A DNA stretch of 62,218 nt, filler included, from Hausera hauseri (lineage: Eukaryota), in NCBI GenBank assembly GCA_046269625.1. It is 11 parts of 11 records of this genome, joined end to end, with 100 filler letters (N's around TTAATTAATTAA, not from the genome) between each part and the next. Parts side by side here need not be neighbours in the genome. Positions count along the whole stretch, not along the records: positions 32,077 to 38,682 come from JBJURY010082214.1; 10 more parts are not named here. One strand, 5' to 3'. Positions within the stretch are counted from its first letter, which is position 1, and the number at the start of each line of letters is the position of its first letter. Shown in pieces: positions 4,787 to 54,207 of the stretch. The notes beneath the pieces are model-generated. The model had not been told where the DNA came from. It saw only the letters and a list, made by a program, of their open reading frames with translations, and made no database searches. The position numbers and the translations under genes were made by a program.

Positions 4787-7687
4787 TGTCGCAGCCAGTA
4801 TCCTCGGCAGATACTGGCAAATGTAACCTATCTAATTCCTTTAGCCAACACGTTTCATTTGCCGTTTTCACATTAAAAGCTACTATCTCCAATTTTAACA
4901 TCCAGTCCATAGATTTTCTCATTGACACTGGTGCAGCGATATCACTGCTTCCATTTACCTTTCTGGTTCAACATGCTCCATCTAAACTGAAACCTTTATA
5001 CACTGCATCTGGTCAAGCTCTTCGTGTCGCCGGAACCTGCAAACTTTCTTTCACTTTACAAAATTTTTCCTCGCCATTTCATTGGACATTTACAGTCGCT
5101 AACGTCCGGACTGCAATACTTGGCTCAGATTTCCTTTCACATTACAATTTACTAGTTGATTGTAAATGACTCTGTTTGAAAGCAAATACATCTGAAAACC
5201 TTAATACAAAAATAGACAGCATTACAACGACAACACAGTCCACATTAAATAAACCATCTATTTTAAAACACTCGGTACTTCGTTCTAATCCCAATAACAA
5301 TATGGTATTTTCTGTAAAAATACTGAACACTAACATTTACTCAAACATGGTTCCGGACCAGACCATCTTACTTCAGGCCCAACTTGATTTTTCTTCAACA
5401 ACTAATCATCATATATCAAGTACTTCTATCAATCTCGGTTCATCATCAGTTACAACATTCCAACAACTACCGACAAGTTTACAACAATTCTTTCATACCT
5501 CTTGTCCTCGGATACTTCAGAAAGATAGGAATTTCACTTCAGTAAATAGCATTTACCACCATATAAATACAACACATCAAAGGCCAATAAGACAAAAGGT
5601 CCGTCCATTGTCACCGCGACGAAGACAGGCAGTAGAAGCTGAATTTATGGAACTTGAACAATCAGGTATCGTCCGCAGATCTAAATCACCATGGTCTTCG
5701 CCTCTTCACGTCGTACAAAAAAAGATGGATCTTTCCAACCATGCGGCGATTACCGCCAACCTAATACGTTAACAACAATGGACGCATACCCACTACCATT
5801 AATTATGGACATATTACATCAACTTAATACTTTCTCAGTTTATTCGACAATCGATTTAGCTAAGGCTTACCATCAAATACCTGTCGCACCGGAAGACATC
5901 GAAAAACAGCAGTCACCACGCCTTTTGGACTTTACGAGTATTTATATATGCCTTTCGGTCTCCAGAATGCAGCGCAGACGTTTCAAAGACACATTGATTC
6001 AATACTTTCAGACTTCACTTTTGCGCATCCCTACATTGACGATATCTTGGTTGCCTCCTCATCAGTTAAACAACACAAAGAACATCTACGATCCATCTTC
6101 AAACGCCTTAACCAGTTCAATCTACAAATCAATTTTTGCGAAATGCAACTTCTTTAAAAAACGCGTTAATTTCCTCGGACATATTGTCTCAACAGATGGC
6201 CATTCGCCTCAACCTGATTGAGCTGAGACTCTTAAAAATGTTTAACTACCAAAGACAACAACAGAAAAGAGCAATTTCCTAGGTACATTACACTTCGTCC
6301 ACAAATATATTCCGTATTGTTCGGAACTAACGGCACCGTTTGCACACTTAAGTGGAGGAAAGAAACATCAGAAAATCATGTGGACGCCACAGCTGGTCAA
6401 TGATTTCGACAAGTTACGCGAAGGACTAAAGACTGTGGAAATACTGGCATTCCCTAAACCTGACGCTGAGTTAATCTTAACAACAGATGCGTCAAACACC
6501 GCAGTAGGAACTGTACTACACCAATTATACAAAGAAGAAAACCAACCTTTAGAATTTTTCTCCCGCAAACTCATTGCACCTGAAACAAGATATTCCACGT
6601 TTGATCGAGAACTATTGACAACCGTTCTCGCCTTAAAGCACTTTTCACATCTACTCGTCGCTCGTCATTTCACTCTGCAAACTGACCACAATCCTTTACT
6701 TAACATCATGGCCATGAAACACCCCTCCACACGCCAAGAACGGCAAATATCATACTTATCGACGTTTAATTTTGATATTAAACATATTAATGGAGTTAAC
6801 AATTTAGTCGCTGATTTTTTATCTAGGTTAGTTAGTTCTATTAATTTTTCTCCAATTTTTACTGAAGAACAACTCCAACAAAACCAACCACTTCCAGACA
6901 TGCTTAAGTCTTTCAAATCTTGCACAATCGTTGACGGCGTGGCTTTGGACACCTCCAAATTGGGTCATTCAGTAATCATTTTAGCACCTCCATTGCAAAG
7001 ACAAGCCTTTCATCACGTGCATTCATTACACCATCCTGGTGCTAAAGCCACTTTTTGTCTCCTCCATTGACAAGTCCTATGGCCGTCGATGCGTTCTGAC
7101 GTGCAGGCATGGATTAAGGAGTGTGTGGCATGCCAAAAATACAAAACAACTAAGCATTTAATCAACCACTATTCCACTTTCCCTGCACATCGCGTTTCAA
7201 GTCCGTGCATATCGACATTGTTGGCCCTCTTCCTCCAGACAGCAGTCATAAATTTATCCTCACCATGATAGACCGTTCCTCGCGATGGCCAGAAGCCATC
7301 TCTCTGAGGAGTACTAACATCGACACCATTGCTGACGTTTTCATTTGCACATGGATTAGCAGGTTTGGATCACCCGTTTTATTATCATGGACCAAGGTCC
7401 ACAATTTGAATCCAACCTGTTCAAATCTATTGTTAACCGATTGGGGATCCACCACATTCATACTACGCCTTATTATCCCCAATCAAACGGCCTCCTAGAA
7501 CGCTTCCACCGCACACTGAAAACGTCACTACGCATTCTCGCAGAGTCCAACAGAAGTTGGACCAATCTTCTTCCGTTCGTCCTGCTCGGTTGGTGAAACA
7601 CTCCGTCCACTTCCATAGGATGTTCGCCTACCAAAGCCCTATTTGGAACACCTGTTTGCTCCTTGTTCGAATTAACCGCACTAGATA
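4786..7687 (+). pseudogene. pol: pol (PR-RT-RNase H-IN) in -1 frame relative to gag, several stops and frameshifts
   Basis: Domain motifs spread over ORFs 4786-5169, 5176-5772, 5691-6221, 5948-6157, 6378-7070, 7205-7498, 7387-7596. Confidence 0.92.
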
Positions 7688-7844: not shown

Positions 7845-10800
7845 ATAATGAATTTAGGGGATCCAAACCTGATGAACCAAGTGCGCATAAAAACATCGGC
7901 TTTTGTGTCCGTGTTAGTACTCCGTAGAGGGACGGCTTTTGGCCATCGTGAGGAATGATCCATCATGGTTGAAATGAACTGATGACCGTTGTCAGTGGGA
8001 ATTGGGCCGATAAGATCAATATGTACGGACTCGAAACGCGATGTACAAGGGCAATGATACAGTGGTTGCTTCAAATGCTTGATGGTTTTAAATTTTTGGC
8101 AGGTTACACATGCCTTAACTTACGTTTGCACATCAGAAAGCATAGTCGGTCATATTACTTGCCGGTGAAGTAAACGAAAAGTCGCCTTAGCACCAGGATG
8201 GTGTAGTGAATGTACACTGTTGAATGCCTGTTTTTGCAAAGCAGGAGCCAAGATTATTGTAGCCTGTCCAGGATTAGATGTGTCGAAAGCTATGCCGTCA
8301 ATAATGTTGTTAGATCAAAAAGATTTAAGCATGTCCGTAGGTAGTTGGTTTTCTTGCAGCTGAGCTTGTGTGAAAATGGGCCGAAATTTAATGAAGCTAA
8401 CAGATATGGAAAGAAAATCAGCGACTAAGTTATTTACATTGTTAATGTGTTTCATCTAAAAACTGAACGTCGACAAGTATGAGATCTGTCGTTCTTGTCG
8501 AGTAGATGGGTGTTTTATTCTCATGACATTTATTAGGGGTTTATGGTCCGTTTGTATGATGAAACGTCGAGCAGTGAGTAAATGTGAGAAGTGTTTTAAG
8601 TCAAGGACTATCGCTAGTAGTTCTAGGTCGAACGTGGAGTATCTGGTTTCAGAGGTGTTAGTTTGCGTGAAAAGAACTCCAGTAACTGATTTTCACCTTC
8701 ATGAATTTGATGCAGTACGGCGCCCACAGCAGTGGTGGAGGCGTCTTTTGTGAGGATTAGCTGTGCATCATGTTTGGGGAAAGCTAATATTTAGACAGTT
8801 TTTAAACCTTATCTTACCTTTTTGAATTTGTTAACTAGTTCAAATGTCCATTGTATTGACTGGTGTTGTTTTTAACTACTGAGATGAGCAAATGGTGCGG
8901 TAAGTTCGGAGCAGTACGGCACATACCTGTGAACGAAGTGCAAAGTGCCCTAAAAGCACCTCATTTCTGTTGTTGTTCGAGGTAGTTGCACGTTTTTGGG
9001 GCTTCAACTCGATTGGGCTGAGGTGAGTGACCTTCAGATGAAGTGATGTGACCACGGAAATTTATACGTTTCTGGAAAAAGTTATATTTGGCAAAATTAA
9101 TCTGCAGGTTATTCTGATATCGGCGTTAAAAGATTGATCTTAGATGTTCTTCATGTTGTTTGGTTGAGAAAAAAACAAATAATATGTCGTCGATGTAGGG
9201 GTGAGCATATGGAAAATCTGAAAGAATAGCAGCGATGTGATGATGAAAGGTCTGCGCCGCGTTCCGTAGGCCGAATGGTATATATAAATATTCGTAAAGG
9301 CCGAAAGGTGTTGTAACGGCGGTGTTTTTGATATCTTCGGGTACCACCGCGATTTGGTGATAAGCCTTAGCCAGGTCAATAGTTGAATAGATTGTGGTGG
9401 AATTGTAACGATATAATGTCTTTTATCAAGGGTAAAGGTACATGTCCATTACAGTCAAAGAGTTTAACTTCAGGTAATCACTACATGGTCGCCACGATCC
9501 ATCCTTTTTTGAACCACATGCAAAGGAAAAGACCACGGAGACTTTGATCGACGTACAATTCCGATACATTCAAGGTCAGCGAAATGGGCTTCGATCGCCT
9601 GTCTGCGTCTGAGCGAAAGTGGTCGTACCTTTTGACAAATGGGCCTTTGGTTTTGCGTAATGATGCGATATAAAGTATTATTTTCTGGTGTGAAAGACCT
9701 ATCTTTCTTAAGTACACGAGCGCATTATATAATAAGGTACTGTTGCAAATTTTTCGGCAATTGTGAAAGATCAGGCGGAATGGTTGTGTCATGAATAGTT
9801 GAAATTTAAAAGGTACTCAGTGGCTTAACATCTTTACGATTTTTAGATAGATTGGATGTGCCGAAAAATGGATAAGAGGTATTGATTCTATCCGATGTGC
9901 GTATTATGTTAAAGAAATCGCACTTGTCATTGTTTAATCTTGTTTTGTTGTCAGCATCGTATTTGATTAATTTACGAAATATATTGTGGTTATTAGAAAT
10001 TGCTGGTTTAATAGTCGGTAATTTCAAAATAGACTTCCTTGGGCCGTTCGTTCGTTTGATGGTTGAGACACTATTCATCAGTTCGGTTTGATTTTTATTA
10101 ATGGTGTTTTTCAAACAACGGTGTTTACAATCCACCAGGAGATTGTAATGCGGCAGAAAATCGGACCCAAGGATAGTCGTTTGGACATTTGCGACTGTAA
10201 ATGTCCAATGAAATTTAGAGGAGAAATTTAGAAAGGTGAAAGAAAGTGTAGAAGTTCCGGAAACATGTAACGGTTGTCCGGAAGCTGTGAAGAGATTTTA
10301 CTTTAGATGTAACGTTGTAGACGGGAAAGGTGAGTGGTAGAAGTGATATTGCTTCAACTGTGTTGATAAGGAAGTTTATATGTTGGGGTCTCGGGGCGAT
10401 GGTAGAAGCTTTCAACGTGAACACAGCGAGAGAAATTTTTCGGCTATTAGCAAGTGGAGAAAAGCCTTCGCCAGTGCGTGCCGAAAGCTCTGTCAGCGAA
10501 ATTAGTTTTTAAAAAAAGGAGAAACAGGGTGGCTGTTAGAAGGCAGGTTTGTGCGTTCGCCATTTGCATGATGAGATTTGTTGTTAAAAGTGCAATCAGA
10601 GATGCATCTGCGTGCATTGTCTGAATTTTGCATGATATATGCAAATGACGTTGTCTGTATGGTATCTTTGATTATAAAATTTGCACCCTAGGTGGCATTT
10701 TTGTGCATTATTATCAAACCTACCGTGGTAATAGCAAATCAGTGATCGTCCGGTTGAGGATGACCCATTACGAGATATGGAACGGTTACGGTCAGGAATG

Positions 10801-11593
10801 AAACCATCCCCCCGTCGAGTCAATGAAATCTCGTTCATTTTATTATTGATATTACTTATTGTTGTTTGTAAGGCCGCATTTTCGGCTCGTAGTTGATTTA
10901 AATGCTATTTGAATGTAGCGTTGTTGGTAGTAACGACTGCAGGAATGGGTGGTTGGGTGTGTACATTCAAAGCCTCGTATGTTTTGTCTGCCATTTCGGC
11001 TAATTTATCAAGCATCATCGGTTCTTCGACGACAGTAAGGACCTATTTTGTATGGGCAGTGCGTTCAGGAAGTAATGTCTCAAAAGATCGGCATTATGTT
11101 GTTTAATGACGCCAAGTGTTTGAAGTTGAACGAGTGAAATTCTAATGAAATTTGACGGTTTTTGCGTCCCCATATCATTGTCGTTGAAAAACCAATGAAC
11201 TATGGAGTCCGTAGATGATTCGGTAAGTTTTAGAACGGCGTTGTAAAGATGGGTGTATGGATCAGGTTGTTGGAAGATGTCTAGCAAATCATGAATGGAC
11301 GTTTTAACTGTAGTCGGTAAAAGACAACGTAGGTTATGAGCTTTGGCTAGAGAATCAGTAATACCATTAGACTGCAGCCAAAGTTTGTGAAAACTAAGCC
11401 AGGTTGTGCTGGACTTTTCATGATCGATAAAATATTCTGTGCGCTGGGAAGAAGTGTATTTGGCTGGCGGAACGGAAGGTGTATAAGTGGTGAAAGTAGA
11501 TGGTGTGGTGACAGTCGACATGTGGTGAAAAGCAAAATGTGATGGTTTAGAGGTAGTCTTGTCAGTGGTGTCAATGGTGGGTGAAGAGTCCAT
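7845..11593 (-). mobile_element. CsRn1-type Ty3/Gypsy copy 2 (heavily decayed, truncated inside integrase)
   Basis: Gag MDSSPTIDTT...LWLQSNGITD, CYYHGRFDNNAQKCHLGC; [24 protein letters not shown]; IN VHIDLIGPIP; colinear with copy 1. Confidence 0.93.
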
Positions 11594-11849
11594 GCCACAA
11601 CGTATGCGCAAATGTACATGGATAACAAGATGTGAGGTTGAAGGAGATAAAAAATTGTAGACATTGGTATTAGCGAGTGGTAGATTATTAAGAGTTAAGT
11701 AAAAGTCTGAAAGAGCAGTAAAATGTACATATTTGTGTAAGACAGTGAGTCTATATTGTATGTTATATTGTGCGTCAGTATTTGAGAGTTATTTAGTAAA
11801 AAGTAAAGCGAAAGAGGTGTCACAGACCCTATTGAGTGATGTTCTAACA

Positions 11850-13448: not shown

Positions 13449-13458
13449 GCTATATAAG
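13404..13458 (+). promoter_or_regulatory. poly(dT) tract plus TATA box (TATATAAG) upstream of the 584-aa ORF
   Basis: T42 at 13404-13445, TATATAAG at 13451-13458, ATG at 13530; same layout upstream of the RNR gene. Confidence 0.6.
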
Positions 13459-13529
13459 GCGGTCCCTTCCCTCATTCCCTCCGGACCTTTGGACGATCAA
13501 CACCAAGGCTCTCTCGTATTTTTTCAAAG

Positions 13530-15284
13530 ATGTCAAAGCATTCGCGGGTAATTTCAACAATGAGATGCAAGTTGATCAGTTATCAAAGAAGAGTGCGCTT
13601 ATGCCAAACTCGAGTAACGTGCCCTCGATGTGACCACATTTTGTTGCCTTCGCAATTTGTAGACCATCTCTTGGATGAGCACGATATTCAAATTAAAAAT
13701 GCATGTCCGTGGTGTTTGGGTCATCATACATGGAAATCTAGAGAAAAACATCTTCACGAGGATCATTTGTCGCTTTGTTTTAAATTGTTTATCGATGCTT
13801 ATCGGGTATCGATACCACTCGGAGAAGAGGTACCAGTCAGAGAAGAGATACCATGCAATCGCGGCCAACCCATCTTTGACATGACTCCCATGTGCCCAGA
13901 GAGGGATTTTTTCGGCCATCGGAAATTGACCCACCTCTGTCCGGAAGCGTACGATCGATTCGGTGGTAGCAGCGACGACGACACGGAATACATGTTCCTC
14001 GGCCACGTGGGACTCGCCGCTCACTACGTGAAAATGTACTCGGAGGAACCCTCCTCCTCCTCCACCGAATGGTTCCACGTCATGGTCCGCGCCGAGACTT
14101 TCGACAATTTCGTGTCCGCTTTTCGACACTACGACGGCCAGGCGACCCTCTTACCGTTTTCCTGTTGGTGCGACGGCGGAAGGAAGAATCGGAAACCCGC
14201 GGAACACAGGCACATGATCATCGTGGCCGACGACGGAAAGGATTTCATGAAGCGGTGTTGGAATAAAATCAAAAATAAATTTGGGAAATGCAGACGCATC
14301 CAATCCTTCATGCACCTGATCAACACGATCGGTTACGTGAGCGGTCGCCGATCTTGCTGCCAGTTTACCTTCGAAGGCCGCAGGTCGTCCGACAACCATT
14401 ACTACATATTCTGCTCCTTGCCCAAATCGTTTAAGAAATGCTTGGCCCTCTGCTACCCCGACGGTTTGAAGGCGGTCTTCACCCAAGAAAAGGGAAGTGT
14501 TTCCATGGCAGACGTTCCGCACGCCGTCAGGGTCCACGAGCAGTGGAAAATTCCGGTGGGCGATCTGCTCCGCGACGAAGACGAGAGGAATATCGTTTTG
14601 CCCCTGCAGAAGCACTGGAGACCGTCGGCGATCGTCGAGTACGATCCCAAATTAAAGGACCGAACCTTTTTACACTTGATGAACGGTAAAGTCTGGTTGC
14701 TGGAGAAAGATCCGTCCCTCGAAGCCTTGGACGAGAGCGAGTGGGTCGAGGAACAGGCCAAGTCGGGCAACCGATTCTATTCCATCGTCGAGAACGAATG
14801 GTGGACGCCCACCAAAAACCAGCAAAAGTGCCTCAACGACATCCAATCCCTCCGGGATCGTGCCAGGGTACTGGAATGTCGGCTCAGCGTCCAATCGAGA
14901 GAGGCTCGACACCACGAGAAAGCGAATCGAGATTTGAGAAAGAGGGAACGGCAATATCGGGAAGAAATCGACAGATGTCGTGTGGAAATCGCGGAATTGA
15001 AAGTGGAAAACGACAGATGTCGTGTGGAAAACACGGAAAACGCCAGATGTCGTGTGGAAATCGCGGAATTGAAATTGGAAAACGACAGATGTCGTGCGGA
15101 AAACGCGGAATTGAAAGTGGAAAACGACAGATGTCGTGTGGAAAACGCGGAATTGAAATTGGAAAACGACAGATGTCGCGTAGAAATTGCTCGTCTAAAG
15201 GTTGAGCAGAGGGAAAAACGACTCGTCGAGGAAAATGCTCGGCTCAATAACCTCTTGTGGATAAAGAGGGCGCGACGAGAATGA
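13530..15284 (+). CDS. 584-aa intact, intron-less protein: C2H2 and C2HC zinc fingers, putative HUH-endonuclease-like core, C-terminal coiled-coil repeats
   Basis: CPRC-x11-HLLDEH, CPWC...HLSLC; WFHVMV / EHRHMIIV / HLINTIGYVS arranged like rolling-circle motifs I-III; 14-aa repeat ENDRCRVE(I/N)AELK(V/L); ORF is solid, HUH call is inference. Confidence 0.75.
   Translation: MSKHSRVISTMRCKLISYQRRVRLCQTRVTCPRCDHILLPSQFVDHLLDEHDIQIKNACPWCLGHHTWKSREKHLHEDHLSLCFKLFIDAYRVSIPLGEEVPVREEIPCNRGQPIFDMTPMCPERDFFGHRKLTHLCPEAYDRFGGSSDDDTEYMFLGHVGLAAHYVKMYSEEPSSSSTEWFHVMVRAETFDNFVSAFRHYDGQATLLPFSCWCDGGRKNRKPAEHRHMIIVADDGKDFMKRCWNKIKNKFGKCRRIQSFMHLINTIGYVSGRRSCCQFTFEGRRSSDNHYYIFCSLPKSFKKCLALCYPDGLKAVFTQEKGSVSMADVPHAVRVHEQWKIPVGDLLRDEDERNIVLPLQKHWRPSAIVEYDPKLKDRTFLHLMNGKVWLLEKDPSLEALDESEWVEEQAKSGNRFYSIVENEWWTPTKNQQKCLNDIQSLRDRARVLECRLSVQSREARHHEKANRDLRKRERQYREEIDRCRVEIAELKVENDRCRVENTENARCRVEIAELKLENDRCRAENAELKVENDRCRVENAELKLENDRCRVEIARLKVEQREKRLVEENARLNNLLWIKRARRE
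14964..15200 (+). repeat. Coding tandem repeat, 42-bp unit (two heptads), about 5-6 copies
   Basis: Repeated GAAAACGACAGATGTCGTGTGGAAA(A/T)CGCGGAATTGAAA(G/T)TG, one unit shortened in frame. Confidence 0.95.
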
Positions 15285-16196: not shown

Positions 16197-16571
16197 AGGT
16201 CCTCGTCCGGAAAAAACTACGAGCTCGTCGACGACGAAACAATAAACACCACAAGACCCGATATGAAAAGGAACCCAACCCAGAATCTGGCCGAACATTT
16301 GGATTAAAATTAAATTATGACCCAACCCTGAATCTAAAGGGAATTTATAAAAAAGATGTGGGTAATGTCGGGTGAGGGTGGTAGAGTGACTCTACTGATC
16401 GAATATTTGGATTTAAAATTAAATTATATGAAAATGGTGGTNNNNNNNNNNNNNNNNNNNNNNNNNNNNNNNNNNNNNNNNNNNNNNNNNNNNNNNNNNN
16501 NNNNNNNNNNNNNNNNNNNNNNNNNNNNNNNNNNNNNNNNNNNNNNNNNNNNNNNNNNNNNNNNNNNNNNN

Positions 16572-17522
16572 AAATTTATGGTCATCTTTTTTAGACATGA
16601 CACCGCATTTTTGGTATTCTCCCACTTTTTTCTCAAAAAAGTTTGTTTTGCCTTCGAGACTTATATGTTCCATGAAATCAAAAGGGTTGTCCACATCAAA
16701 AAACTTGTCGCAATTTAATTCCACCAGTAACCTGTCGGCTACAAACTGAATGTACCGTTTCATCAATTTGGTGTTCATCCCGATTAGATCCACTGGTAAA
16801 GCTTCGGTGAGAAACTCTTGTTCGATTGCAACCGCGTCCGCTATTATCTGGAGAATTCTTTCTTTGGACGGTTTGTTAACCAAATGGTTGTTAAATATCA
16901 GGCATGCGAAATCACAATGTAAGCCCTCGTCTCTGCTGATCAATTCGTTGCTAAAGGACAGACCAGGCATCAATCCTCGTTTCTTCAACCAGAAAATAGC
17001 CGCGAATGAACCCGAGAAGAAAATTCCCTCCACGGCGGCAAAGGCTACCAATCTCTCGCCAAACGAGGCATCATTGTTAATCCAAGAGAGAGCCCATTCC
17101 GCCTTCTTCTTCACACAAGGTAGGGTCTGGATCGCGTTGAAAAGTTTTTCTTTTTCTTGGCTGTCCCTGATATACGTGTCGATGAGAAGGCTATACATCT
17201 CCGAGTGCACGTTTTCGATAGCTATTTGAAATCCATAAAAACAACGCGCCTCGGAAATTTGAACCTCGGCCGAAAATTTCTCAATCAAGTTTTCATTGAC
17301 GATCCCATCGCTGGCTGCGAAAAATGCCAAGACGTGGGAAATGAAATGCTTTTCCCCAACTGAAAGATTTTCCCAGTCACTTAAATCTTTGGATAAATCT
17401 ACCTCTTCGGCGGTCCAAAAGGAGGCCTCGGCTTTTTTATACATTTGCCAGATGTCTGGATACTCGATCGGAAATATTACAAATCTATGAGGATTTCTAC
17501 GCAGCAGTGGTTCCTCGTTCAT
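16572..17522 (-). CDS. RRM2: Class Ia ribonucleotide reductase small subunit (R2), intron-less, no N-terminal extension; last few codons fall in the N gap 16442-16571
   Basis: [16 protein letters not shown]...[34 protein letters not shown] (radical Tyr), [30 protein letters not shown]; all di-iron ligands present. Confidence 0.97.
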
Positions 17523-17551
17523 TCTTAAATAAATTCAAAGTATCTTTGGGG

Positions 17552-18293: not shown

Positions 18294-21000
18294 CAGGGGT
18301 GGGCAAACTTTTTGACTCGTGGGCCACAGAGGGTTCTAAAATTTGACAGAAGGGCCAGACCAGGAGCAGATGGATGGAGTGTTTTGGTAATTCATCTCAT
18401 TAGAGAAAAAAATAACATATACTGTATGTAGAAAACTTGCTTTAATTTCAATAGAAAATTAACAGAAGCATTACAACAAAATATCTCTTCCAAGTCCCAC
18501 AGAATTTCTTACTGAAATGACTCTTAAAATACTGAAAATTCAATTAACAAAATACAGCTTTTTAAAAGTACTAACAGTTACCATATTGAAGCATTTAAAG
18601 TTTTGATATCCTTCAGGACATTATCATCACTCTCCTCCTGAACATTTCAGAAATGGATGGAGATGCAGATCATCGGAACAGTGACAGCATGCCAGTATGT
18701 GGCCATGTTATATATATCTGGTGCGCATTGTTTATATAAAGGCAGTGCACCTGCACACCACTTATGTGCGCACCTTAACAGAAATGACATGTAACATGTA
18801 AATCCATTTTTTACAGCAGAGGATGTAACACGTAGAGCCGAGAAACTTACTTTTGATTTCAGTGGGAACAGTGTTGTTGGTGTCCCTTTTTAAGCAGCCC
18901 ATCAAAGTCTGGAGTCAGTTTTGTCATGGCGATTCTCAGGATGGATCCGAGGTGTTGGTCAGTCAACTTGAATCTGTGACTGGCTTTGTTGAAGTTCATG
19001 ACGCTGAACGTCTGTTCACACACGTAGGTTGAGCCGAACAACGCAGCATCTTCTGTGCCATCCTCCGGAGGTTTGGAAACACCGCTTCATTAAGTGAAGC
19101 ATAAAAGTCATTCAGTTTAAGAGACTTGAACTTCTCTTTTAGGACAGCGTCAGCCTGAAGGTCGATCAGTTCTAGCTGTAGTGCTTCTGGTGCTGTTTCG
19201 GGGTCTTGTGACAGGGGACAGGCCACCAACTGAAGTGACTTGTTGATTTTCTCAAAATCAACAAAGCGACGGCAGAATTCATTGTTGAGTGCATCCAGTG
19301 ACTCGCTGTATTTCTTCACTTTTGCGCCAGCCTCCTCTTTCAGTGTGGCTAGTGTGGGGAAATGAGTGAATGACACATTTAAGATTTGCTTGGAAAATAA
19401 AGCCAGCTTGGCTTTGAAGGCTTTCACACTTGTGTACAAGTCATGCACAAATCGATCCTTCCCCTGTATGTTCACGTTCAGCTCATTCATGTGTGAAAAT
19501 GTATCCACAGCAAACGCAAAGTCACAAAGCCAGTTCTTGTTGCTCAGCTCGGGAAATTTGTCGGCCTTCCCCAGTAGCTCCAAAAATGCACCTATCTCCT
19601 CTTTGAGGTCCCACACTCGTTGAAACACTTTGCCCAAGCTTAACCAGCGGACACTGGAGTGATAAAGTAGGTCCTGGTGCTCTGCATCAGTTTCCTCCAA
19701 GAACGCAATGAACTGACGGTGCTGAAGTCCCCTTGCACGTATAAAGTTGACAAGTTTTACGACAGGATTCCAAACATGATTCGGCTGTAATACAGATTGA
19801 CACAGAGATTCCTAGTGGATGATGCAATGAAGGAAAATAACATCCTGGTCAGGATTTTCTTCTTTCACTTTATCCTGGATTGTCCTCAGCAGGCCAACAT
19901 TTTTCCCTGTTAAATTAGGAGATCCATCTGTGGTGATGTTGATAAGTTTACTCCAAGGCAGCTTCATATTTTCTATGATAGCAGACACCCGGTTATACAA
20001 GTCCTCCCCCCGTGTTTTTCCTTTCATAGACTCCAACGTCAAAAACTCCTCTGTTATTTCAAAAGCATCGTTAATTCCTCGGATAAAAATGAGGAGCTGA
20101 GCAGTTGAATTTACATTGTTGCTTTCATTCAGCGCTAATGTATAAAACGTGAACGACTCTGCCGTTTTCTTTAAGTTGCTAGTTAGATCTTCGTCTATCA
20201 GTTCCACACGGCGAGTCACTGTCTTGCTTGATAGACTGATTTTCTCAAACTTGTCTTTGGCCTCTGGACACAAGACACCTGCTGTCTCCACCATACATTC
20301 CTTTAAAAACTCACCTTCAGACAGAGGCTTGCTGGCCTTTGCTATTTGAATGATAGCATAAAACTCGCCTTGGTACTTGACTCTTGGATGGCACTTTGAT
20401 GATGAAATAAATTGTGTTGAGCTTGTAAATTAGCTACCAACCTCTGAGCAGTAGCTTCCTGTTCTTTCTCAGACTGCTTGCTAGCATAGTTGGCATGTTT
20501 TGTAGTAAAGTGACAGCTGATGTTATACTCTTTAAAAACCGCCACAGTCTCTTTGCATATCAGGCATACAGCAGTTGATCTGTGTTCGGTAAAAAAAATA
20601 TTTAGTTGTCCACTTCTTATTAAACACTCGACATTCTCTGTCCACTTTTCTTTTTTTTAGCTCCGCTCATCATTACAGAAGGGTTGAGCTGTCAAAGAGG
20701 GAAAATGCTGAGTAATGATGCATTCATAGGGTGTCAGAATGATCGTAAAAATCACTTTCCCACTGGGAAAAACAACTCGGCAAGCCGAATCTTCCGACAC
20801 CACTTGAATGCAGCATAAGACAGTGCACCTCAACAAAGGTCAGTGTATCAGAGTGTGCCATCTATCGAGAAACACCACAATTGCAGAGAAAATAAAACAT
20901 TAACAAGGTTTACCATTATAATTGATTCTGATTCGGGGGACCGGATTAAAACGCTTAACGGGCCGCATACGGCCCCAGGGCCGCAGTTTGCCCATCCCTG
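18294..21000 (-). mobile_element. Full-length hAT DNA transposon, Buster/Charlie (GTF2IRD2/SPIN-like) group, 2707 bp
   Basis: TIRs CAGGGGTGGGCAAACT (18294) and AGTTTGCCCATCCCTG (ends 21000); exact 8-bp TSD ATCTAGGG at 18286-18293 and 21001-21008 with central TA. Confidence 0.97.
18859..20673 (-). pseudogene. hAT transposase (BED finger, DDE core, dimerisation domain), disrupted
   Basis: CLICKETVAVFKEYNISCHFTTKH; LALNES (catalytic D to N); TTDGSPNLTG; HCIIH*; VRWLSLG; FGSTYVCEQTFS; stops at 20342 and 19812, frameshifts near 20650 and 19040. Confidence 0.93.
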
Positions 21001-32760: not shown

Positions 32761-32831
32761 AACTTACTTTATGGCACACACAAAGGAAGTTATTTTTTCA
32801 TGTTCAGATTGTTTTCTAGCTGGAATGGAGG

Positions 32832-33236
32832 ATGAGATCCATGCCCACAAGGCATACATTTCCACATGATGACTTATCTCCAAATGCTTTAAAACGTACA
32901 CTTATACAAGACACAATAATTTTTAAGTTATTAGATGATAAAGACAAAGTAATTTCTAACAAAATAATGACAGCAATTACGAAAACAAATTACGACGCAG
33001 AGGTACCACCTAAAACTAACATAATCAACCATAAAATGACACCTAAACCCACACGAGCGGTGTATAAATATTCACGATTAGAAATAATATGCATAGGATC
33101 AATAACCCCTGTAGTTTTGATAATAATATTGTTAATAATGGTTAAAATTTTATACAAGCGACACAAACCAAGAAGCTGGGTTAGAATCGATATGCGAAAT
33201 CTAACGAATCCGTTAGACACAGATAACCCTAGCTGA
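32832..33236 (+). CDS. Membrane-anchored ORF remnant in the 3' internal region of an LTR retroelement
   Basis: Single hydrophobic helix IICIGSITPVVLIIILLIMVKIL followed by basic YKRHK tail; the true 5' end is probably lost near 32866. Confidence 0.5.
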   Translation: MRSMPTRHTFPHDDLSPNALKRTLIQDTIIFKLLDDKDKVISNKIMTAITKTNYDAEVPPKTNIINHKMTPKPTRAVYKYSRLEIICIGSITPVVLIIILLIMVKILYKRHKPRSWVRIDMRNLTNPLDTDNPS

Positions 33237-33305
33237 CGATTACAGTTAGGGATTGCAATATACGCAACCCTAGGTAAAGAGATAACCAAACGACATAGAG
33301 TTATC

Positions 33306-34673
33306 TTGTGTAATAAAAATAACAATAGTAAAACCACAACGATTACCTCCCTGATTTGTCTGATAACCGTTGTGCTGTGTCTAAGTATCGTGATAAATAA
33401 TGTATTGACTCTTGTTTTTACAGTCTCAACTGCTACGTTCCACCAGATCCAGTCTATCAACCGCTCGAAACATTGGTACAGTAACGTCAAGAACCACATG
33501 ATCAATGCTAACCCCTCTAATCAATACTTCGTATCCCACAATGATAACATGACTAGTTTAAACTATCCACAGACTCCGCAAATTCCTAACAATATTAAAG
33601 GATACAGTATGGCAAATCGATCTTTCGCCATAATGCAACTCACTAAAGCTACGTCGTTTCTGCTAGAGGACATAATAATATTACCCGATCGGTTCCATTC
33701 TATGAACCTGTATGGTGTGGTGGGTCAAATCCAGATAAAGACCACAGACAAAAAAACCTCCATCAAAGGCGATCTAATTAATGTCGATCCTGAACACGCC
33801 TTAGCGTTCGACTATACCTTTCTTCAAACCAATAATTTCAAAATCCGTTCATGCACAAATCGTGTAATACTGGCAATAGAAATAATTAAACGAGAGAAAT
33901 TTTACCCCACCCTACCAGAAGGAAGATGTTTCAATCTCCCAGAACCTGACTATGTCAAGTACAAAAACATTCCCTACAGAAGATTGGAAAAAGTCACAGA
34001 TAAGGACATGGTCATAGCAGCCGTAAATCTGGCCTATGACCAGTGGAATCAGCTTCAACCCATCGAAGCTTCGATTCTAACGTTAAACGGAGATACTTTA
34101 CTATATGGAATTATTACACCGAGGCAGCGTATCAATAATTTCGACACGCATATAACTGGCCTCACAGAATCCAGTATTAATAATCAAATCGATCCCATGG
34201 ATTTTTATCGGAAGGTGACAGAAGTAATAACGGACAAAGTGATTATCGGAGCCGAAGTGGTTGAAATGGTTGTGAACCATTTCAAATGTCCAATCCGACG
34301 GATAGCTGGAGTGCGTGATATATTATATCACGAGGATGTTATCCGTCGGTACCAGTTATCATCTAATACTTATAAAGAATTGGCCCGAAAGTTTTATGAT
34401 ACCAAGGGCTTCTCTCTTCGAAGCACTGCCTTAGCGCAGTGCTATCAATCCATCTACAAGCAACTAAAATGGTCTGATGAGTATATTACTCAAAGTACGG
34501 CCTCCGATACGGTGCGAAAAGCACCAACAGCATCACAATGCGGAAGAAAGCGAAAAATCCAAGTGGACGAAACTATTATACTAGACGAGGAGATATACGA
34601 ACCAGATTCCATACGGTACAAATCCAGAACCACAGACAAATACATCCACATGCCTCTAATGTTGGATCAGTAA
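33306..34673 (+). CDS. Accessory ORF: degenerate retropepsin-like segment plus REX4/ISG20-like DEDDh exonuclease fold, apparently catalytically altered
   Basis: EASILTLNGDTLLYGIITPRQRINNFDTHITGLT...FYRKVTEVITDKVIIGA...IAGVRDIL parallels REX4 (RVSIVN..G.VLYD..VKP...V.DYRT..SGI...V..LLK.RILVGH...RDT); ExoI D-x-E not visible; first ATG at 33498. Confidence 0.6.
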   Translation: MCNKNNNSKTTTITSLICLITVVLCLSIVINNVLTLVFTVSTATFHQIQSINRSKHWYSNVKNHMINANPSNQYFVSHNDNMTSLNYPQTPQIPNNIKGYSMANRSFAIMQLTKATSFLLEDIIILPDRFHSMNLYGVVGQIQIKTTDKKTSIKGDLINVDPEHALAFDYTFLQTNNFKIRSCTNRVILAIEIIKREKFYPTLPEGRCFNLPEPDYVKYKNIPYRRLEKVTDKDMVIAAVNLAYDQWNQLQPIEASILTLNGDTLLYGIITPRQRINNFDTHITGLTESSINNQIDPMDFYRKVTEVITDKVIIGAEVVEMVVNHFKCPIRRIAGVRDILYHEDVIRRYQLSSNTYKELARKFYDTKGFSLRSTALAQCYQSIYKQLKWSDEYITQSTASDTVRKAPTASQCGRKRKIQVDETIILDEEIYEPDSIRYKSRTTDKYIHMPLMLDQ

Positions 34674-34709
34674 TAAATTGAGGACAATTTCTCAAAACCC
34701 CCGTCGAGT

Positions 34710-35433
34710 TGTTGATGAACTTCGTGTCTTAATAACTTTGAACTTTGTCTTAATAACTTTACCAACGAATGATCATGTGTAATAACTGTGCAATGATTTA
34801 TTTTATAAATGATCACGTATTATATAACTGATCGTACTATGTAACGTATATTTAATTTTGTAAAATGGAAACTGACATGTGATTTTCCTTTGTGATTCAT
34901 GATTTTTACGTGATTCTAACGGAATTTTTCATGCGAACGTTGTTTTATTTATATTATGTCATACAATTGGAATACTATATAAAGTGTGATTTTGTTCATT
35001 AAAATCAGAAACTTTTTATTGACAATGACATCACGTAAGTGTACTCATTCCTTCTTTGTATATGCTTGTTAAATTCTTGATTGTTATATGGTATTTGAAT
35101 AGAGTTATCATTTTATTTTTCAAGTATTGTTGTGTTTTTATCAATTAATAAAAGTAAATAAATAAGTTTCAATAATATTGGAAATTCTTCGTCCAGGTAA
35201 AAGCGACCTGACGGAGGCCTCATTAAAACCCGTTTAACGTATAAGATAGTAAACCATAAGTCAATAAACGAGATAAAATATTCTTGAGTATTCTTGTAAC
35301 ACATCACCTACTCACGATTAAGTAAGATCATATACGACTCCTACACGTTAAGACGCAAATTGTTCTACTCAATAGTTGACGAAAAGCTTATTAAATTGAT
35401 ATTATAGCCCGACCAATATTGAGTAACTGAACA
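34710..35433 (+). repeat. Long terminal repeat (~724 bp)
   Basis: TGTTGA...TGAACA termini; preceded by PPT-position sequence TTGAGGACAATTTCTCAAAACCCCCGTCGAGT; TATATAAA ~34976, ATTAAA ~34998; followed by a PBS. Confidence 0.75.
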
Positions 35434-35436
35434 AAC

Positions 35437-35454
35437 TGGTTCCGTGACCCGGGA
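35437..35454 (+). promoter_or_regulatory. Primer-binding site (tRNA-His- or tRNA-Glu-like)
   Basis: TGGTTCCGTGACCCGGGA begins 3 nt after the LTR-terminal CA. Confidence 0.75.
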
Positions 35455-35584
35455 TTACATAAATTTATTAGGACTTTAGGTTAAAGAAAGCAATATAACC
35501 ACTAGAAAAGGAACAGTATACCAACGAGAAGAAAGTATACCCTTTGGATTAGAATATATAGATAATTTAAGCGAAGAAGAACCC

Positions 35585-38500
35585 ATGGCAAGTAATAAAG
35601 TAGAACAGGTGATTCAGTCTAAGGCTGACTTCACCCTCCCCATGAAGAAGTTTTCCGGTAAAGAAGATATCCAAGATTTTATGATGGAATACGAAGTATA
35701 TTCCAAAAGTTTTGGCTGGGATGACAAACAAAGAGTAGAAAGGTTACCCCTTCATTTGAAAGGGACGGCTCTTATGGTTTATTTCCAATTACCTGAAGAA
35801 GATAAGAAAGACTGGAAGGAAATTAAAGATAAGTTGCCTCAAAAGTTTCTAATAGATCCCTCTGGAAAGGGGAGAATCGAAGAATTTATAAGACGGAGGC
35901 AACGGAAAGACGAATCCGTCCAGGACTTTGTATGTGCATTGGAAAAACTTGCAGCGAGAGCATACCCCGACGTAACGATACGAAACAATGCATTGTTAGC
36001 CCAGTTCCAATACGGATTAGAAGAAAGATTACGAACAATAATTTCTCAAGCAGACCCGCCTACGTTCCAAGAGGCAATAAGAAAGGCACGAAAAGCCGAA
36101 CGGGATGCGGAACTGTATAGGTGGAATAAATCCAGAAACAATAATAATGGCTACGATAAAAGACGAAATAATAGTACACAAAAGTATCAACGGTACGACA
36201 GAAATAGAAGCCCATCACAAACATCAGCAACCGAAGCTGAATCAGATGGAGAAAAGAAAGTGAGATTCAATTTACGGAATGACGGAGAAAAAGCAAGTTA
36301 TAAGAAGAAATATAAGAAAGATGGAAGATCATTACCCAGTATAGATTCTGAAGGAAGATTAAAATGTTTCAATTGTAATAAATATGGACATATAGCGAAA
36401 TCATGTAGATCACGCAAAAGGGACTCTTCAAAGCCAAATGATAAAAATAAACAGAGGAAAGATAATGTATCAGCAACGTCGGACGAATCGTCCGACAGAG
36501 AATATGAAACAGATGATAGTGCCAGTGAACGAGAAGTCAAAAAGAAAGATAAGAAGAAAGAAAGTATTAACTATATAAATGATTCATTACCCTCACGTAT
36601 GAAGAAACAGCTAGAAATAGAAGTAAAGGAGTATAAAAGACAACAGCAAAGGTTGAAAGAGAGTAATATTTACATGGTAGGTGATCCATCGGAGAAACAG
36701 ACATCTCGCAAAGGAAAAAAGAAAAGTAATAAGAAAATAATTGATGTAGAAGTTGGATCAAGAGAAACGTCGACAGAGAGGAAAGATGTAGTAAATGAAA
36801 AGAAAAGAGGAAGAAAGAAGAGTAACATCAGCACACCCTCACCCTCATTTAGTCCGGGAGAATCCCAAGACATGCCAATATTTGACGAAGCTATATTAGA
36901 TCAGGTAATAAGGAACCCTGGTGTAGACTTAGACGAAGAAGATGACATTATAGAAGCATTAATGATTATTGATCCTAATAATATAGTCGATATAGACAAA
37001 ACAACTACGACGATATTGAAGATAATCACCAGTAAAATAACGGCAAAAAGAATGAATGAAATTCTACCCCAATTGGTATTACTAGCCCAAGACACTAGCC
37101 CCGTAAGAGAGATGGCTAGAACTGTGTTAGCCAAAGCTGCGGAGGAAGAAAAAGGAAGAAATGAAGCCATTAGGATAACAATAAAAGAAGGAAACCAAGA
37201 CATGAGGGTCATCCGGATGAATGAAATTGATGACATACAAACCTTACGAGAAAGGATAGAGGAGCTGGAACCATTTTATCAAGCCAGTCCCTATGGATTA
37301 AGTTATTGTGGAAGGACACTATACGGTTACGACAGACTACTAAGAATCGGATGCAGAAGTGAGAATTATAATCCAATAAATATAACTGAAATACATCCAG
37401 AGGCAAGAGCACAAGCAACTGTGGAAGAAATCATAAGAGAAATGGAACCACGGGAAGTAGAAAATCCCATGGGTGATACGCAAGACGTTACGGTCCAAAC
37501 GGAAGCCAAGAGAAGAGGCAGGCCAAGAGGGACAAAGATAAGCGACATTCGCAATAGGAAAGATAGAAATGAAGAAATAGTAAGACGTTTATTACTAGCA
37601 GGAACAGATGGCACTCCTGAATCGGTGGACATAGATCCATTACTAAGAACGTTATTGGCCAAGATGCACACGTCATTTGCCTCTTTTGACATGCAGGCAG
37701 TAATCCCAGATGAAGTATTTAATACGTTACGTAATAATATGCTGTAGACAATAAGTAGACAATTCTACGAGAATCTAGAGGAAGAAAGGATAAATGAGTT
37801 ACATTAAGTAGATATTTTGGAAAGGATGTTCGCTACAAGCATCACACGAGAAAAAACCCAAACAGCTATATATTATTTTTTATATAAGATAATAGTAATT
37901 AACCATCAGACTCAAAATCTAGAGGACATTGAACGAAACATAAAGACAGTGGTAAAAATTATGAAAGATACTCTGGGAAATTGGGCTCAATGTAGAGGTG
38001 GCTGGCTGAACAGCCTAACGACTAATATAGATAGGACAGAAGAACGAGAAAGAATAAGAGATAAACCAGTCGGGACGCAACCAACTACGTCTCGATCAGG
38101 CATAACAGGTATGTCAATAATGGCGATTATACAAATCCTACTAATAACATCATTACTAATGTCAAAAGCCGTAGGTATAGTGGCATATGACTGTTCTAAA
38201 CCCAGTGAAGGACAAAAGTATTCTCTAGTTGACTTAGAGAAATGCCCAAAAGCCGACCCAGAGTAATTGACAACTACTGGTGGCCTTACATATTGGGTGT
38301 ACCAACAGTCTGAATTCATAAAGGCAAAGATTAGAGAACGTTACGTGAAAAGATCTTTCTTTCTATTCAATTGTGCCTATTATTCAGGAAATTCAGCCAT
38401 AATTGAGACTACAACACCTTTCGAGCCAATAATAATATCCCGAGCAGAATTTCAGGATAAATTTAAGATTGACATCATAACTATACAAAATGCACATATA

Positions 38501-38682
38501 CCTGCAGTAAGAAATAGAATAAAGTACATGAGAATTTTTAGAGCTGGAAGGATAGATAAGACAATGGAAGGAACCTGTAAAGGAGTGGATTACGATGTCG
38601 GAGGCACCATAGCACCTAGAACGGTAGCCATAGAAGATTATCAGGTACAGCTGAAAGAATACGAGGGATTATTCGATTCCCA
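35585..38682 (+). mobile_element. gag: Single reading frame Gag - ubiquitin-like domain - AT-hook - signal peptide - chuvirus-like glycoprotein; three in-frame stops; runs off contig end
   Basis: ORFs at 35585, 37817 and 38267 are in one frame; Ty3/Gypsy capsid (KFSGKEDIQDF...RRQRKDESVQDF), CCHC CFNCNKYGHIAKSC (36365-36406), hydrophobic MAIIQILLITSLLMSKAVG then IVAYDCSKP...YSLVDLEKCP. Confidence 0.82.
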
Positions 38683-49918: not shown

Positions 49919-52900
49919 GAGTAGTTTCAGCTGACGTGGTATCGTCAATAAAGAAAGCTGGTTTTAAGTTATTAATATGGACTGGTTGTTCTTTGTTGTC
50001 CTTAAGAATGACCGCGTGATGGGAACGAAGTGAAAGAAGTTTATAGGGGCCCGTGTACCGTGGCTGAAAACCGACCGGAGTTTGGTTTTTTAACCAAACG
50101 AATTTAGCTGAGTAAAGGTCGTTAGGAATATATGGTCGCTTACTGTGTAGAACTCTGCAAAAAGTGTCTTTGCTAATGGCAACAAAATGTTCCTGGGCTG
50201 CCCGAAGTGTTTCATCAGTAGGTGAGTTGTCTCGCTCAGTTAACTCGAAAAGGGCACGTAGTGGTGTGCCAAATAGGGCCTCCGACGGGGAGCAACCGGT
50301 TTATGTGGATAGGGTGTTGCGCCATCCGAGTAAGACAAAAGGTAAAAGGTTTACCGATTGGGGGTTGTGTTCAGCTAGGATTCTGAGGGAGGTTTTCATT
50401 GTACGATGAAAACGTTCTAAAAGGCTGTTCGACTGGAGGTGGTAGGGTGTTGTGTCGATGTGAGATATGCCCAGTCGATTTACTAATGATTTAAAGAGAC
50501 TCAACTCGAATTGTGGGCCTTGGTCGGTGATGGTGTGTTTGGGTGAGCCAAATCGGCTGAGCCATACACGTATAAAGGCGTCAGCTATATACCCAGTGTT
50601 TGTGGATTGAAGTGGAACTGCTCCTGGACATCTAGACGAATGGTCCATTATTGTGAGGATAAATTGGTGACCGTTGTCTGGTGGAAGAGGACCGACGATA
50701 TTGAGATGGACAGTATCAAAGCGTGACGTACAAAGAAAATGATAAAGTGGCGGCTTTAGTTGTTTAGTGATTTGGAATTTTTGGCATGCCGCACACTCCT
50801 TAGCCCATGTCTGCACGTCTGTTTTCATTGATGGCCATGTAACTTGGCCTTTTAAGAGGTGTATGTGGCCTTAGATCCTGGATGGTGTAAGGCATGAATA
50901 TTTGTGAAGGCTATTTTTTGGAGAGATGGAACTAGTATGACTTTAGGCCATCCAGGGTCGGTGGTATCGAATGCCACGCCATCAATGATTTTGACAGATT
51001 TATAAGAAGTGAGAGCTTCATCATTCGGTTGATTCCGTCGAAGCGTCTCATTATCTAGAATTGGTTTAAAAGTTATCGAGTCAACTGAACGTGACAAAAA
51101 ATCAGCCACGACGTTGTTTATGCCATTTATATGTTTTATTGTAAAATTGAAAGTTGACAAATAGGATATATGTCTTTCTTGACGTAGAGAGGGGGATTTC
51201 ATGGTAAAAATGTGTAGCAGCGGCTTATGGTCCGTTTGAATTGTGAAGGTGCGTGATACTAAGAGGTGTTTAAAATGTTTGACTACGAGGACTATTGCTA
51301 AAAGTTCTCTATCGAAGGTAGAGTACTTTTGTTCTGTTGTAGTAAATTTTCTAGAAAAGAACTCTAAAGGTTGATGCGTGTTATTTTTAAATTGGTGGCG
51401 TACTGCGCCTGCGGCGATAGTTGATGCGTCTGTTGTAAGAAAAAGTTCTGATGTAGAATCTGGATAGGCTAATATTTCTACTGTTTTGAGATTTGTTTTT
51501 AGGTGTTCGAAAGCATTAACAAGTTCAGGTGTCAAATAATAGGTTGTTTCTTTTGACCAGAACTTAAGGTAGCGAATGGAGCGGTTAAGGTCGAACAATG
51601 CGGCACGTATTTATGAATAAAATGCAAAGTACCGAGTAAGGAACGCATTTCTGAAGTTGTGCGTGGTAATTGAATGTTTTTCAGTTGAATGATGCAGTCT
51701 TGCTGTGGAGCATATCCGGTTGGAGTAATAATGTGTCCGAGGAAATTGATTTTTTTTAAAAAGGAGCATTTTGCGAAGTTTATTTGGAGAATGTTTTGCT
51801 GGAGTCGTTTGAAAACGATGCGTAGATGCTCAGTATGCTGTTTAGGTGATGAAGAGGCAATTAAAATATCGTCGATGTAGGGATATGCGAAGTCTAAGTC
51901 TGCAAGGACGGTGTCTATATGCCTCTGAAAGGTTTGGGCTGCACTGTGTAAGCCAAATGGCATATATAGATATTCAAAAAGTCCGAAAGGAGTTGTTACT
52001 GCCGTTTTTGGAATGTCAGCTGGTGCTACAGGGATTTGGTGGTATGCCTTATGGAGATCAATGTTTGAGAAAATGGTGGAGCCGTGAAGTCTATGTAGGA
52101 TGTCATTGATTAAAGGCAAAGGGTAGGCATTTATGGTTGTGATCTGATTCGGTTGCCTGTAGTCACCGCATGGGCGAAAAGATCCGTCCTTTTTAGGGAC
52201 AACATGTAATGGCGAAGCCCATGAAGATTTCGATCTTCTGATAATGCCTAAGCGTTGTAGTTCTGAAAATTCGGCTTCGACTGCCCGCCTGCGACGTGGA
52301 AATAAAAGTCGTACCTTTTGTCGTATTGGTCGTTGGTGTTCTGTAACAATATAATGAAAGTGTGCATGGCTGGTTTAAAGGTTTTGTCTTTTTGCAACAA
52401 ACGAGTACAAGAAGAAAATACATAGGATTGCAACTCCAGTGGAAGTGATGATAAAATGGTTGACGGTGATGCTCATGTTGCGATTTGCTTAGCGTCGGTT
52501 AGGGAAAATGTTGCACTATCAAGACTAGGTGGAATTTGGTGAAATATTTTGGAATTGAAAATGGTGTTGCGAGCGGTTTCGTTAGCAAAAGGTGTCAAAG
52601 AGTTGGCGTTATCATATTCGTCAACTGCATTATAGTAGTCTCTAAATATGGGATGATTATAATAATACTTTAAATTAATGTGGTATTTTAAGAACAGGTT
52701 TACAACCAGTGATCGTCCGTTCGGTCGTCGAAATGATATTCACGGAATTAGGTTGTTCAAATTGGTTTGAGTTAATCAAGCAGCGGCGTTTGCAATCTAC
52801 CAGTAGATGGTAATGGGACAGAAAGTCTGATCCCAATATATACGTGTTTGGACATTGGTAACTGTAAATGTCCAATTGTATGTGCTTTTTTGTGTGATAA

Positions 52901-54207
52901 TGTAAAGGTAATATTGGTAGTGCCGAAGATGTTTAATTCTGCCCCTGATGCAGTGAATAATTTTTGTGTAAATGTGTTTTGTTATGTACCTCATGTTCAG
53001 GAGGAAGCAGAGAGACAGCTGCTCTTGTGTCTATGAGGAAGTTAATGTTATGTTTTATTGGGATAACAACAGTTGCCTCCAACGTAAAAACTGCAAATGT
53101 TGTGTTTCGGCTGTCATTTTGCAAAGTGGTACCTTCGCTAGAGATGGCCGATAACTCTAGCGGCGTTAATAGTTTTTTTGCTGTGTTTGGTGTTGTTTGT
53201 TAGTTGAGGGTTGCCTAGATTCATATGTGTTAAAATTGCAGCCTCGTAAACATTTTATTGCCTTAGTGTTGAATTTAGAATGGCAGATGCAAATGGTGCT
53301 GCTTAACTTGAATTTAGGTTCAAAAAATTTGCATCCGATGCAACATTTGTGTGCATTGTTTTTAAAATTGGTATGGTAATAACAAATCGACGATCGTACG
53401 GGCGATGGCGATCGTCTGTTGCGCAGTGGTTGTGTATTGGAATGGGCTGCACCAGGGAAATTTCGTTGTGAGAGTCAGTTGGTTTAACTTAGTGTTTATG
53501 CTGTTGATGGTTTCTAGCAGCGCTTTATTGTCTGCTTTAAATTGAGCTATTTGTTCCTGCAATGTGTTTTGTTGTGTATCGTATGGTGTGGTGGTAGTAG
53601 AGATAAGTTGGGGAGTATGCATCTGCAATAATTCATATGATTTGTCAGCTAACTCAGTTAGTTTGTGAAGATCTAATGATTCTTCAACCACGGTTAACGG
53701 ACCCCTAATTTGTAAAGGTAGAGCATGGAGAAAATAACGTCTTAAAAATCTGCGTTGTGTTCCTGTTACTCCGAGTGCTTTCAAGTTGTTTAGAGCTATT
53801 TGTAAGAATTCGGAGGGCTTTTGATTGCCTGTGGTGTTCTCATTGAAGTAGCGTTGAATAATAGAATCCAAAGACGGCTCTGTAAGCCTAAGAACAGCGT
53901 TGTATAGCTCCTTGTAAGGATCAGGATGTTCGAAGAGTTGTAAAAGGTTGGGTATTTAAGTTTTAATTGAATTTGTTAGATAGTAGAAAAGACTATGGGC
54001 CTTTGGAAGAGATTCGGTGATGTTTGCAGATTGCAGCCAGAGTTGATGGAATTGAAGCCAAGTTTGGCTTGAGTTCTGACTGTCAATGAAGAATTCGTTA
54101 CAGTGATGGTCGAAAGGGAGGTCTGAAGGTGTGACTGTACCGGCGCAATATAATATCGGAATAGATTTTGGCTTTTCCGTTGTATCAATCGAAGATGGAG
54201 AGTTCAT
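49919..54207 (-). mobile_element. CsRn1-type Ty3/Gypsy copy 3 (gag-PR-RT-RNase H-IN with GPY/F motif), decayed
   Basis: Gag LWLQSANIT, double CHCC; FLIDTRAAVSL; DLHKAYHQIP, MPFGL, YPYIDD; TTDAS, YSTFDREL; TDQGPQF, ERFHRTMK; PRYTGPYKLL at ~50040-50065. Confidence 0.95.

Follow-up and report, generated by a model that had tools for sequence, protein, structure and literature searches.

Giant Gypsy elements of planarians, known as Burro or GYPSM1, encode a Gag with knuckles, a MATH domain, a Ubi2/SUMO-like motif, and BCL2, with an Env of mononegavirus matches continuing the frame ahead of pol, according to the account in PMC6431247, in which Grohme 2018 and Jurka 2007 are cited on Burro1-4/GYPSM1. 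Meddling with host apoptosis and ubiquitination has been suggested for these elements (Arkhipova and Yushenova 2019, PMC6431247). Elements with the order GAG-ENV-POL and a glycoprotein B (gB)-type Env have been reported from flatworms, nematodes, and bryozoans (Chary and Hayashi, PMC13524379). In engineered fusions, ubiquitin joined to Gag can do the work of a late domain, and budding then needs the L8/I44 patch (PMC2958808). Here we describe a Gypsy element of Hausera hauseri in a stretch of 62,218 nucleotides joined from separate pieces (the window; all positions count along it). The piece that carries the element, JBJURY010082214.1 (32,077 to 38,682), contains what is very probably an integral ubiquitin-like domain (UBL) in a Burro-like element.

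The architecture as such is already known, and the element is a compact Burro relative without MATH, BIR, or ankyrin cargo. It shares with Burro1-4/GYPSM1, as these are outlined in PMC6431247, a CCHC Gag followed in one frame by a Ubi2/SUMO-like domain, a BCL2-like domain, and a mononegavirus-fusion-like Env, here with three stops. It differs in being far more compact and in having one knuckle; the linker from the knuckle to the four-helix domain described below is about 175 residues long, and no Pfam match to MATH, BIR, or ankyrin was found in its 755-residue open reading frame (ORF), which thus lacks the giant-ORF1 cargo of Burro proper. Section 7 of PMC6431247 does not mention two further parts found here, a four-helix partner of the UBL and an AT-hook, and no prior description of either was found in the literature searched, to which Grohme 2018 and the Repbase entries did not belong. 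The author of the preliminary description of this sequence did not know the UBL as a standard component of Gag; the domain is real and integral, but such a motif had already been published for Burro/GYPSM1 (PMC6431247). The Gag-Env order and the gB-type Env are also shared with Smed_errantivirus_1-6, herpes simplex virus/gB-type errantiviruses, and by eye (unquantified) the start of Env has the motif pattern of six Platyhelminthes_C1a rows (PMC13524379). The main text of that paper contains no occurrence of "ubiquitin," "AT-hook," or "Bcl," and no type of primer-binding site (PBS) is assigned there to the Smed elements; the PBS of this copy is tRNA-His-like.

Identification of a ubiquitin-like domain in the Gag frame

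Gag is encoded by the 755-codon ORF at 35480 to 37747 (first Met at 35585), and the UBL lies in the same frame. The ubiquitin-like peptide quoted in the preliminary description does begin at 37169, at codon 529 counted from this Met. When used alone as a query, the segment had no ubiquitin match in Pfam or among PDB sequences, and a model of the single sequence (predicted local distance difference test score [pLDDT], 55) fitted no ubiquitin fold; this negative was overturned by alignment-based tests. A profile of this element and five relatives (A8) matched the UBL of ubiquilin-2 (E value, 1.3e-6), and the best 60 of its 355 matches were all ubiquitin-fold proteins. A second profile (A1), made from the four full-length proteins that phmmer by itself had connected, matched ubiquilin-3 (E value, 8.9e-6). 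The UBL profile built without this element scored it at 39 bits (maximum among 500 shuffles, 12.4). Because further removal of P0001, the closest relative, reduced the match of this ORF to an E value of 0.11 (1,146 six-frame pieces), the link of this UBL to the family runs mainly through P0001. The domain of another relative, P0003, by itself came just short of the Pfam ubiquitin cut-off (E value, 4.1e-5). The model based on the six-row alignment (pLDDT, 71 to 89 over residues 1 to 160) superposed on ubiquitin-fold chains, with 8 to 19% identity between the UBL and these structural matches. The predicted fold is thus a beta-grasp, in agreement with the original proposal.

There is no diglycine after the UBL here, as had been remarked, nor at the end of the domain in any of the six proteins. 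Without the C-terminal diglycine of conjugatable ubiquitin-like modifiers, the domain cannot undergo conjugation, and cleavage by ubiquitin proteases is unlikely. In the alignment to ubiquilin-2, the position equivalent to Ile44 is Ser here, His in P0001, and Val, Val, and Ile in P0003, P0027, and P0030, respectively; P0010 has an insertion there. The hydrophobic patch of ubiquilin/Rad23-type proteasome-binding UBLs is therefore not found in this copy. Only four columns (L, G, G, and N) are invariant, and these are mostly structural. Like the integral UBLs of ubiquilin, Rad23, BAG6, and UHRF1, which were its best profile matches, the domain is a beta-grasp without diglycine; unlike them, it is internal in a retroelement polyprotein, has no UBA partner, and has lost the Ile44 equivalent in this sub-lineage.

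Conservation, selection, and relatives

Contigs from three public runs (853, 124, and 7 contigs) covered all 29 bins of the domain, showing that other copies also have this segment, and no indel was listed over it at the 15% level. Two single contigs of low depth lack part of the UBL and are taken as rare deleted copies or artifacts. The ratio of nonsynonymous to synonymous substitution rates among copies was roughly 0.11 to 0.17, and 28 of the best-supported 40 of 57 variants were synonymous (expected, 21 to 29%). Over the rest of the frame, with the stops set aside, 16 of 25 listed variant rows were synonymous.

The UBL is also conserved in five distant relatives of the element. In a quick tree built on 149 capsid rows, with 2 of 151 omitted as too short, all six UBL-bearing Gags fell into one 17-row group (SH-like approximate likelihood ratio test, 91); the remaining 11 rows of that group are fragments that stop short of where the module would be expected. 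The sister group includes P0102, a Gag-Env-protease protein that runs from Env into protease without the module. The simplest reading, which is not proven, is that the ancestor of the lineage once captured a host UBL of the ubiquilin/Rad23/SUMO-like class long ago. Word-index homologue searches yielded no new relatives, which is weak evidence since the same approach missed P0001 and P0027. No relative was found among viral contigs, and a metagenome scan gave no locus with patterns like those of this element and two with P0003-like patterns.

Domains accompanying the UBL

Two domains not included in the preliminary description flank the UBL and its hook, one on each side. In all six proteins, a four-helix domain stands directly 5' of the UBL across a short linker, in strict co-occurrence. 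Its helices (residues 4 to 15, 25 to 37, 42 to 56, and 63 to 75) were predicted in the six-row model with a pLDDT of 71 to 83, and leave-one-out profiles scored all six rows at 22.6 to 73.5 bits (shuffle maxima, 6.5 to 13.6). Searches with weak queries matched it to no family, TFIIS-N and LEDGF-IBD included; the absence of this domain from the structure match lists is uninformative, as the UBL filled those lists.

The motif KRRGRPRG, noted earlier after the UBL, is present at 37508 to 37531 in the same frame and has the RGRP core, basic flanks, and (predicted) disordered surroundings of an AT-hook. RGRP follows the UBL in four of the six proteins, at 40, 49, 105, and 172 residues, across linkers that cannot be aligned; from composition, 0.0003 to 0.004 occurrences per protein would be expected. 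The other two are P0030, which ends 28 residues past the UBL, and P0010, with no RGRP in 327 residues past it. Pfam AT_hook had no match at an E value of ≤10, in a search whose filters often drop very short motifs. Judged from the sequences, retention of RGRP across these linkers argues for selection on the motif, not for DNA binding. The linker that precedes the helical domain carries a second basic motif (GRP-like or KKRGRKK), at residue 307 of P0001, at residue 369 of P0002, and at about 36800 in the window. The view that a retroelement structural polyprotein here contains an integral, nonconjugatable UBL together with an AT-hook-like motif was borne out, and this part is conserved and under purifying selection.

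A likely Bcl-2-like domain follows the hook in this element, P0001, and P0003, with sub-threshold Pfam matches in all three. The Pfam Bcl-2 E values were 4.5e-4 here (read with X at stops), 0.021 in L001, and 0.055 in P0001, all below the cut-off. Most of the best 60 PDB matches of profile A6 were Bcl-2, Bax, or Bcl-xL, yet the best E value was just 0.12. The region was modeled at a pLDDT of about 50 to 62 and did not appear in the fold match lists. In intact members of the Bcl-2 family, BH1 reads NWGR; in these proteins GGW is kept and BH1 is degenerate.

Layout of the element

The frame runs in the order capsid, knuckle, linker, four-helix domain, UBL, RGRP, Bcl-2-like domain, hydrophobic segment, and Env (Table 1), with Env starting about 850 codons downstream of the Gag start. 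The UBL had been placed between Gag and Env. It does lie in one frame with both, but the Bcl-2-like domain separates it from Env. This copy is broken, because three in-frame stops (37745-47, 37805-07, and 38264-66) interrupt the Gag-Env frame. In P0001, the whole domain order is open in one frame. L001 has one stop ahead of Env, a single TGA at 3058-3060 that splits the Bcl-2-like end of Gag from the in-frame Env; the L001 Env has no Met at its start, and this TGA represents decay or a possible read-through site.

Table 1 Features of the element and of the ORFs preceding it
Feature	Position	Strand	Basis and remarks
Short ORF ending in transmembrane segment and tail	32820..33236	+	Start uncertain; multi-copy coverage
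ORF X	33237..34673	+	Weak DEDDh (ISG20/REX4-like) exonuclease resemblance
Putative long terminal repeat (LTR), 724 bases	34710..35433	+	TGTT...AACA ends, TATA-like and AATAAA sites; suggested by termini and position before PBS
PBS	35437..35448	+	One mismatch to 3' 12-mer of tRNA-His(GUG)
Gag ORF	35585..37747	+	Ty3/Arc-like capsid, CCHC knuckle, long charged linker, then accessory module
Ty3/Arc-like capsid	about 35639-36100	+	Pfam Ty3_capsid E value, 3.8e-5 (below cut-off); dArc capsid matches
CCHC knuckle	36362-36409	+	Pfam zf-CCHC E value, 8.6e-5
Four-helix domain	36929..37144	+	Directly 5' of UBL; model helices, leave-one-out profile scores; no family assigned
Integral ubiquitin-like (beta-grasp) domain, very probable; no diglycine	37169..37390	+	Family profiles, six-row model; Ile44 equivalent is Ser (37301-37303)
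AT-hook-like motif KRRGRPRG	37508..37531	+	Predicted disordered linker (pLDDT, <50)
Likely Bcl-2-like helical domain	37631..38020	+	GGW (BH2-like) motif, degenerate BH1; stops 37745-47 and 37805-07 inside
Internal hydrophobic signal/anchor segment	38096..38194	+	5' of Env; sole stretch of frame 35585-38680 with 19-residue hydropathy >1.5
gB/chuvirus-type (Monjiviricetes-like) Env, N-terminal part	38126..38680	+	Stop 38264-66; cut off by contig end

The Env piece is of the gB/mononegavirus type. It matched Pfam Monjiviricetes_fusion weakly here (E values, 6.3e-19 in P0001 and 7.1e-43 in L001), and by tblastn it showed 47% identity to the P0001 Env and 37% to the L001 Env.

The tRNA-His(GUG) 12-mer used as reference for the PBS was taken from supplement file 2 of PMC13524379; a related locus, L002, matched it exactly. 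The putative LTR is present in a single copy on the contig, where no target-site duplication was visible. Upstream of it, the transmembrane ORF is likely a 3' accessory gene belonging to this element family. The alternative, in which it is the Env tail and the element has no pol, was dropped, since tblastn against three Env proteins gave no match. ORF X is also likely a 3' accessory gene. The sole PDB-sequence match of its core (33990-34460) at an E value of ≤10 was ISG20L2 (1.6); positions 33900-34670 had no match, and no exonuclease Pfam match was found. The first acidic DEDDh motif was not recognizable by eye. The order along positions 32870 to 38682 (3' accessory region, LTR, gag, and env) may represent copies in tandem with one LTR in common, or else a family of high copy number that was collapsed in assembly.

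Other features of the window

The window contains ten 100-base gaps (7688 to 56680), each with a six-frame-stop linker, between pieces of 4 to 7 kb, and neighbors across a gap are possibly not true neighbors. An uninterrupted ORF at 16419-17534, cut by a gap, resembles by eye a ribonucleotide reductase small subunit. Another ORF (13458-15284; 608 residues) has Cys/His motifs and, C-terminally, a coiled-coil-type repeat of 14 residues. Decayed gag-pol pieces at 3413-7070, 9806-11788, and 50301-53955, by eye of another Gypsy family, are partly arranged as inverted repeats on either side of the gap at 7688. Broken ORFs on the minus strand (18996-20429) resemble, by eye, a hAT/SPIN-type transposase.

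Possible functions of the module

The conserved domain of predicted ubiquitin fold in the Gag-Env frame of this compact Burro-like Gypsy element probably acts in the cytosol as a surface on which host proteins dock, jointly with the preceding four-helix domain. We tentatively favor, as partners, host ubiquitin-proteasome factors bound jointly with the helical domain, and we rank this possibility above a structural role, then chromatin tethering, and then recruitment of the endosomal sorting machinery ESCRT. By way of the internal hydrophobic segment, Env would enter the endoplasmic reticulum, with Gag and the cassette staying in the cytosol, where the cassette would be held at the membrane until the protease of the element frees it. 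The freed UBL could then bind ubiquitin-proteasome factors as an adaptor or decoy and, working with the Bcl-2-like domain, might keep the producing cell permissive. With the Ile44 patch lost in this sub-lineage, binding would fall to another face or to a surface formed together with the helical domain.

Several observations weigh against this interpretation. The contig ends at 38682, within Env, and pol is not on it. The Bcl-2 assignment is drawn from sub-threshold matches. Structure matches of the UBL tie among SUMO, ubiquitin, ISG15, and others, and the domain is 35% identical to that of P0001 and 13 to 20% identical to those of the other four relatives; because its identities are so low, ubiquilin as the best PDB class does not fix the donor or the partner. 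The best-supported 40 of 57 variant rows are not independent events, and the source sample may itself be among the runs (X1). In the capsid tree, the group of UBL-bearing Gags is unstarred, and a shuffle test of UBL clustering was not significant (181/500).

A mainly structural UBL, packing with the four-helix domain into a single folding unit or acting as a solubility or spacing element in a very long polyprotein, is a lesser possibility. It would accord with the strict co-occurrence and short linker of the two domains, the mostly structural nature of the four invariant columns, and the variability (Ser, His, Val, Val, and Ile) of the surface Ile44 equivalent. However, Burro-type cassettes as outlined in PMC6431247 are rich in apoptosis and ubiquitination domains, pointing to host-directed functions, and a mere spacer has no need of a ubiquitin fold.

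Murine leukemia virus p12 and the host factor LEDGF offer parallels for a chromatin tether, a role also raised in the preliminary description. The four-helix domain, UBL, and AT-hook would then be released from Gag as a unit guiding the preintegration complex to AT-rich DNA. We regard this as unlikely. The RGRP kept in four of six proteins across unalignable linkers of 40 to 172 residues counts in its favor, as does the presumable likeness by eye of the helical domain to TFIIS-N/LEDGF-IBD bundles. The searches, however, linked that domain to no TFIIS-N/IBD family, P0010 keeps no RGRP, and the basic motif may also be a nuclear localization signal or an RNA-binding site. Slightly less likely still is that the three-part module is a tether and integration-targeting factor built into Gag, in the role that LEDGF has for human immunodeficiency virus, and that its UBL has in this sub-lineage switched from the Ile44 surface to a new partner. 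In pestivirus polyproteins, ubiquitin inserts serve as cleavage marks, and a UBL marking a host-deubiquitinase cleavage site would be a similar device. Inserts from the bovine viral diarrhea virus polyprotein were among the viral fold matches, which indicates a shared fold only; with no GG near the domain end in any of the six proteins, this reading is largely refuted and highly improbable, and the processing role suggested earlier is disfavored.

Budding through a UBL that acts as a built-in late domain recruiting ESCRT had also been suggested. Gag-fused ubiquitin can substitute for a late domain (PMC2958808), PPxY, P(T/S)AP, and YPx1-3L are absent from all six proteins, so that a substitute could be needed, and P0003, P0027, and P0030 retain a hydrophobic Ile44 equivalent. 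The fusions share with this Gag an attached ubiquitin fold, but their activity, as reported in PMC2958808, needs the L8/I44 patch of true ubiquitin. Since the equivalent residue is Ser here (with a polar variant listed among the copies) and His in P0001, ESCRT recruitment is quite unlikely for this sub-lineage.

Implications

The fold, profile, and selection results confirm that the ubiquitin-like motif mentioned in passing for the giant Burro elements of planarians is a domain that is real, old, and conserved. Its four-helix partner and hook, for which no description was found, are the part still worth following. The minimal cassette (four-helix domain, UBL, RGRP, and Bcl-2-like domain) is small enough to express and test, and its compactness eases the approach to how these enveloped retroelements may manipulate the ubiquitin and cell-death systems of the host.
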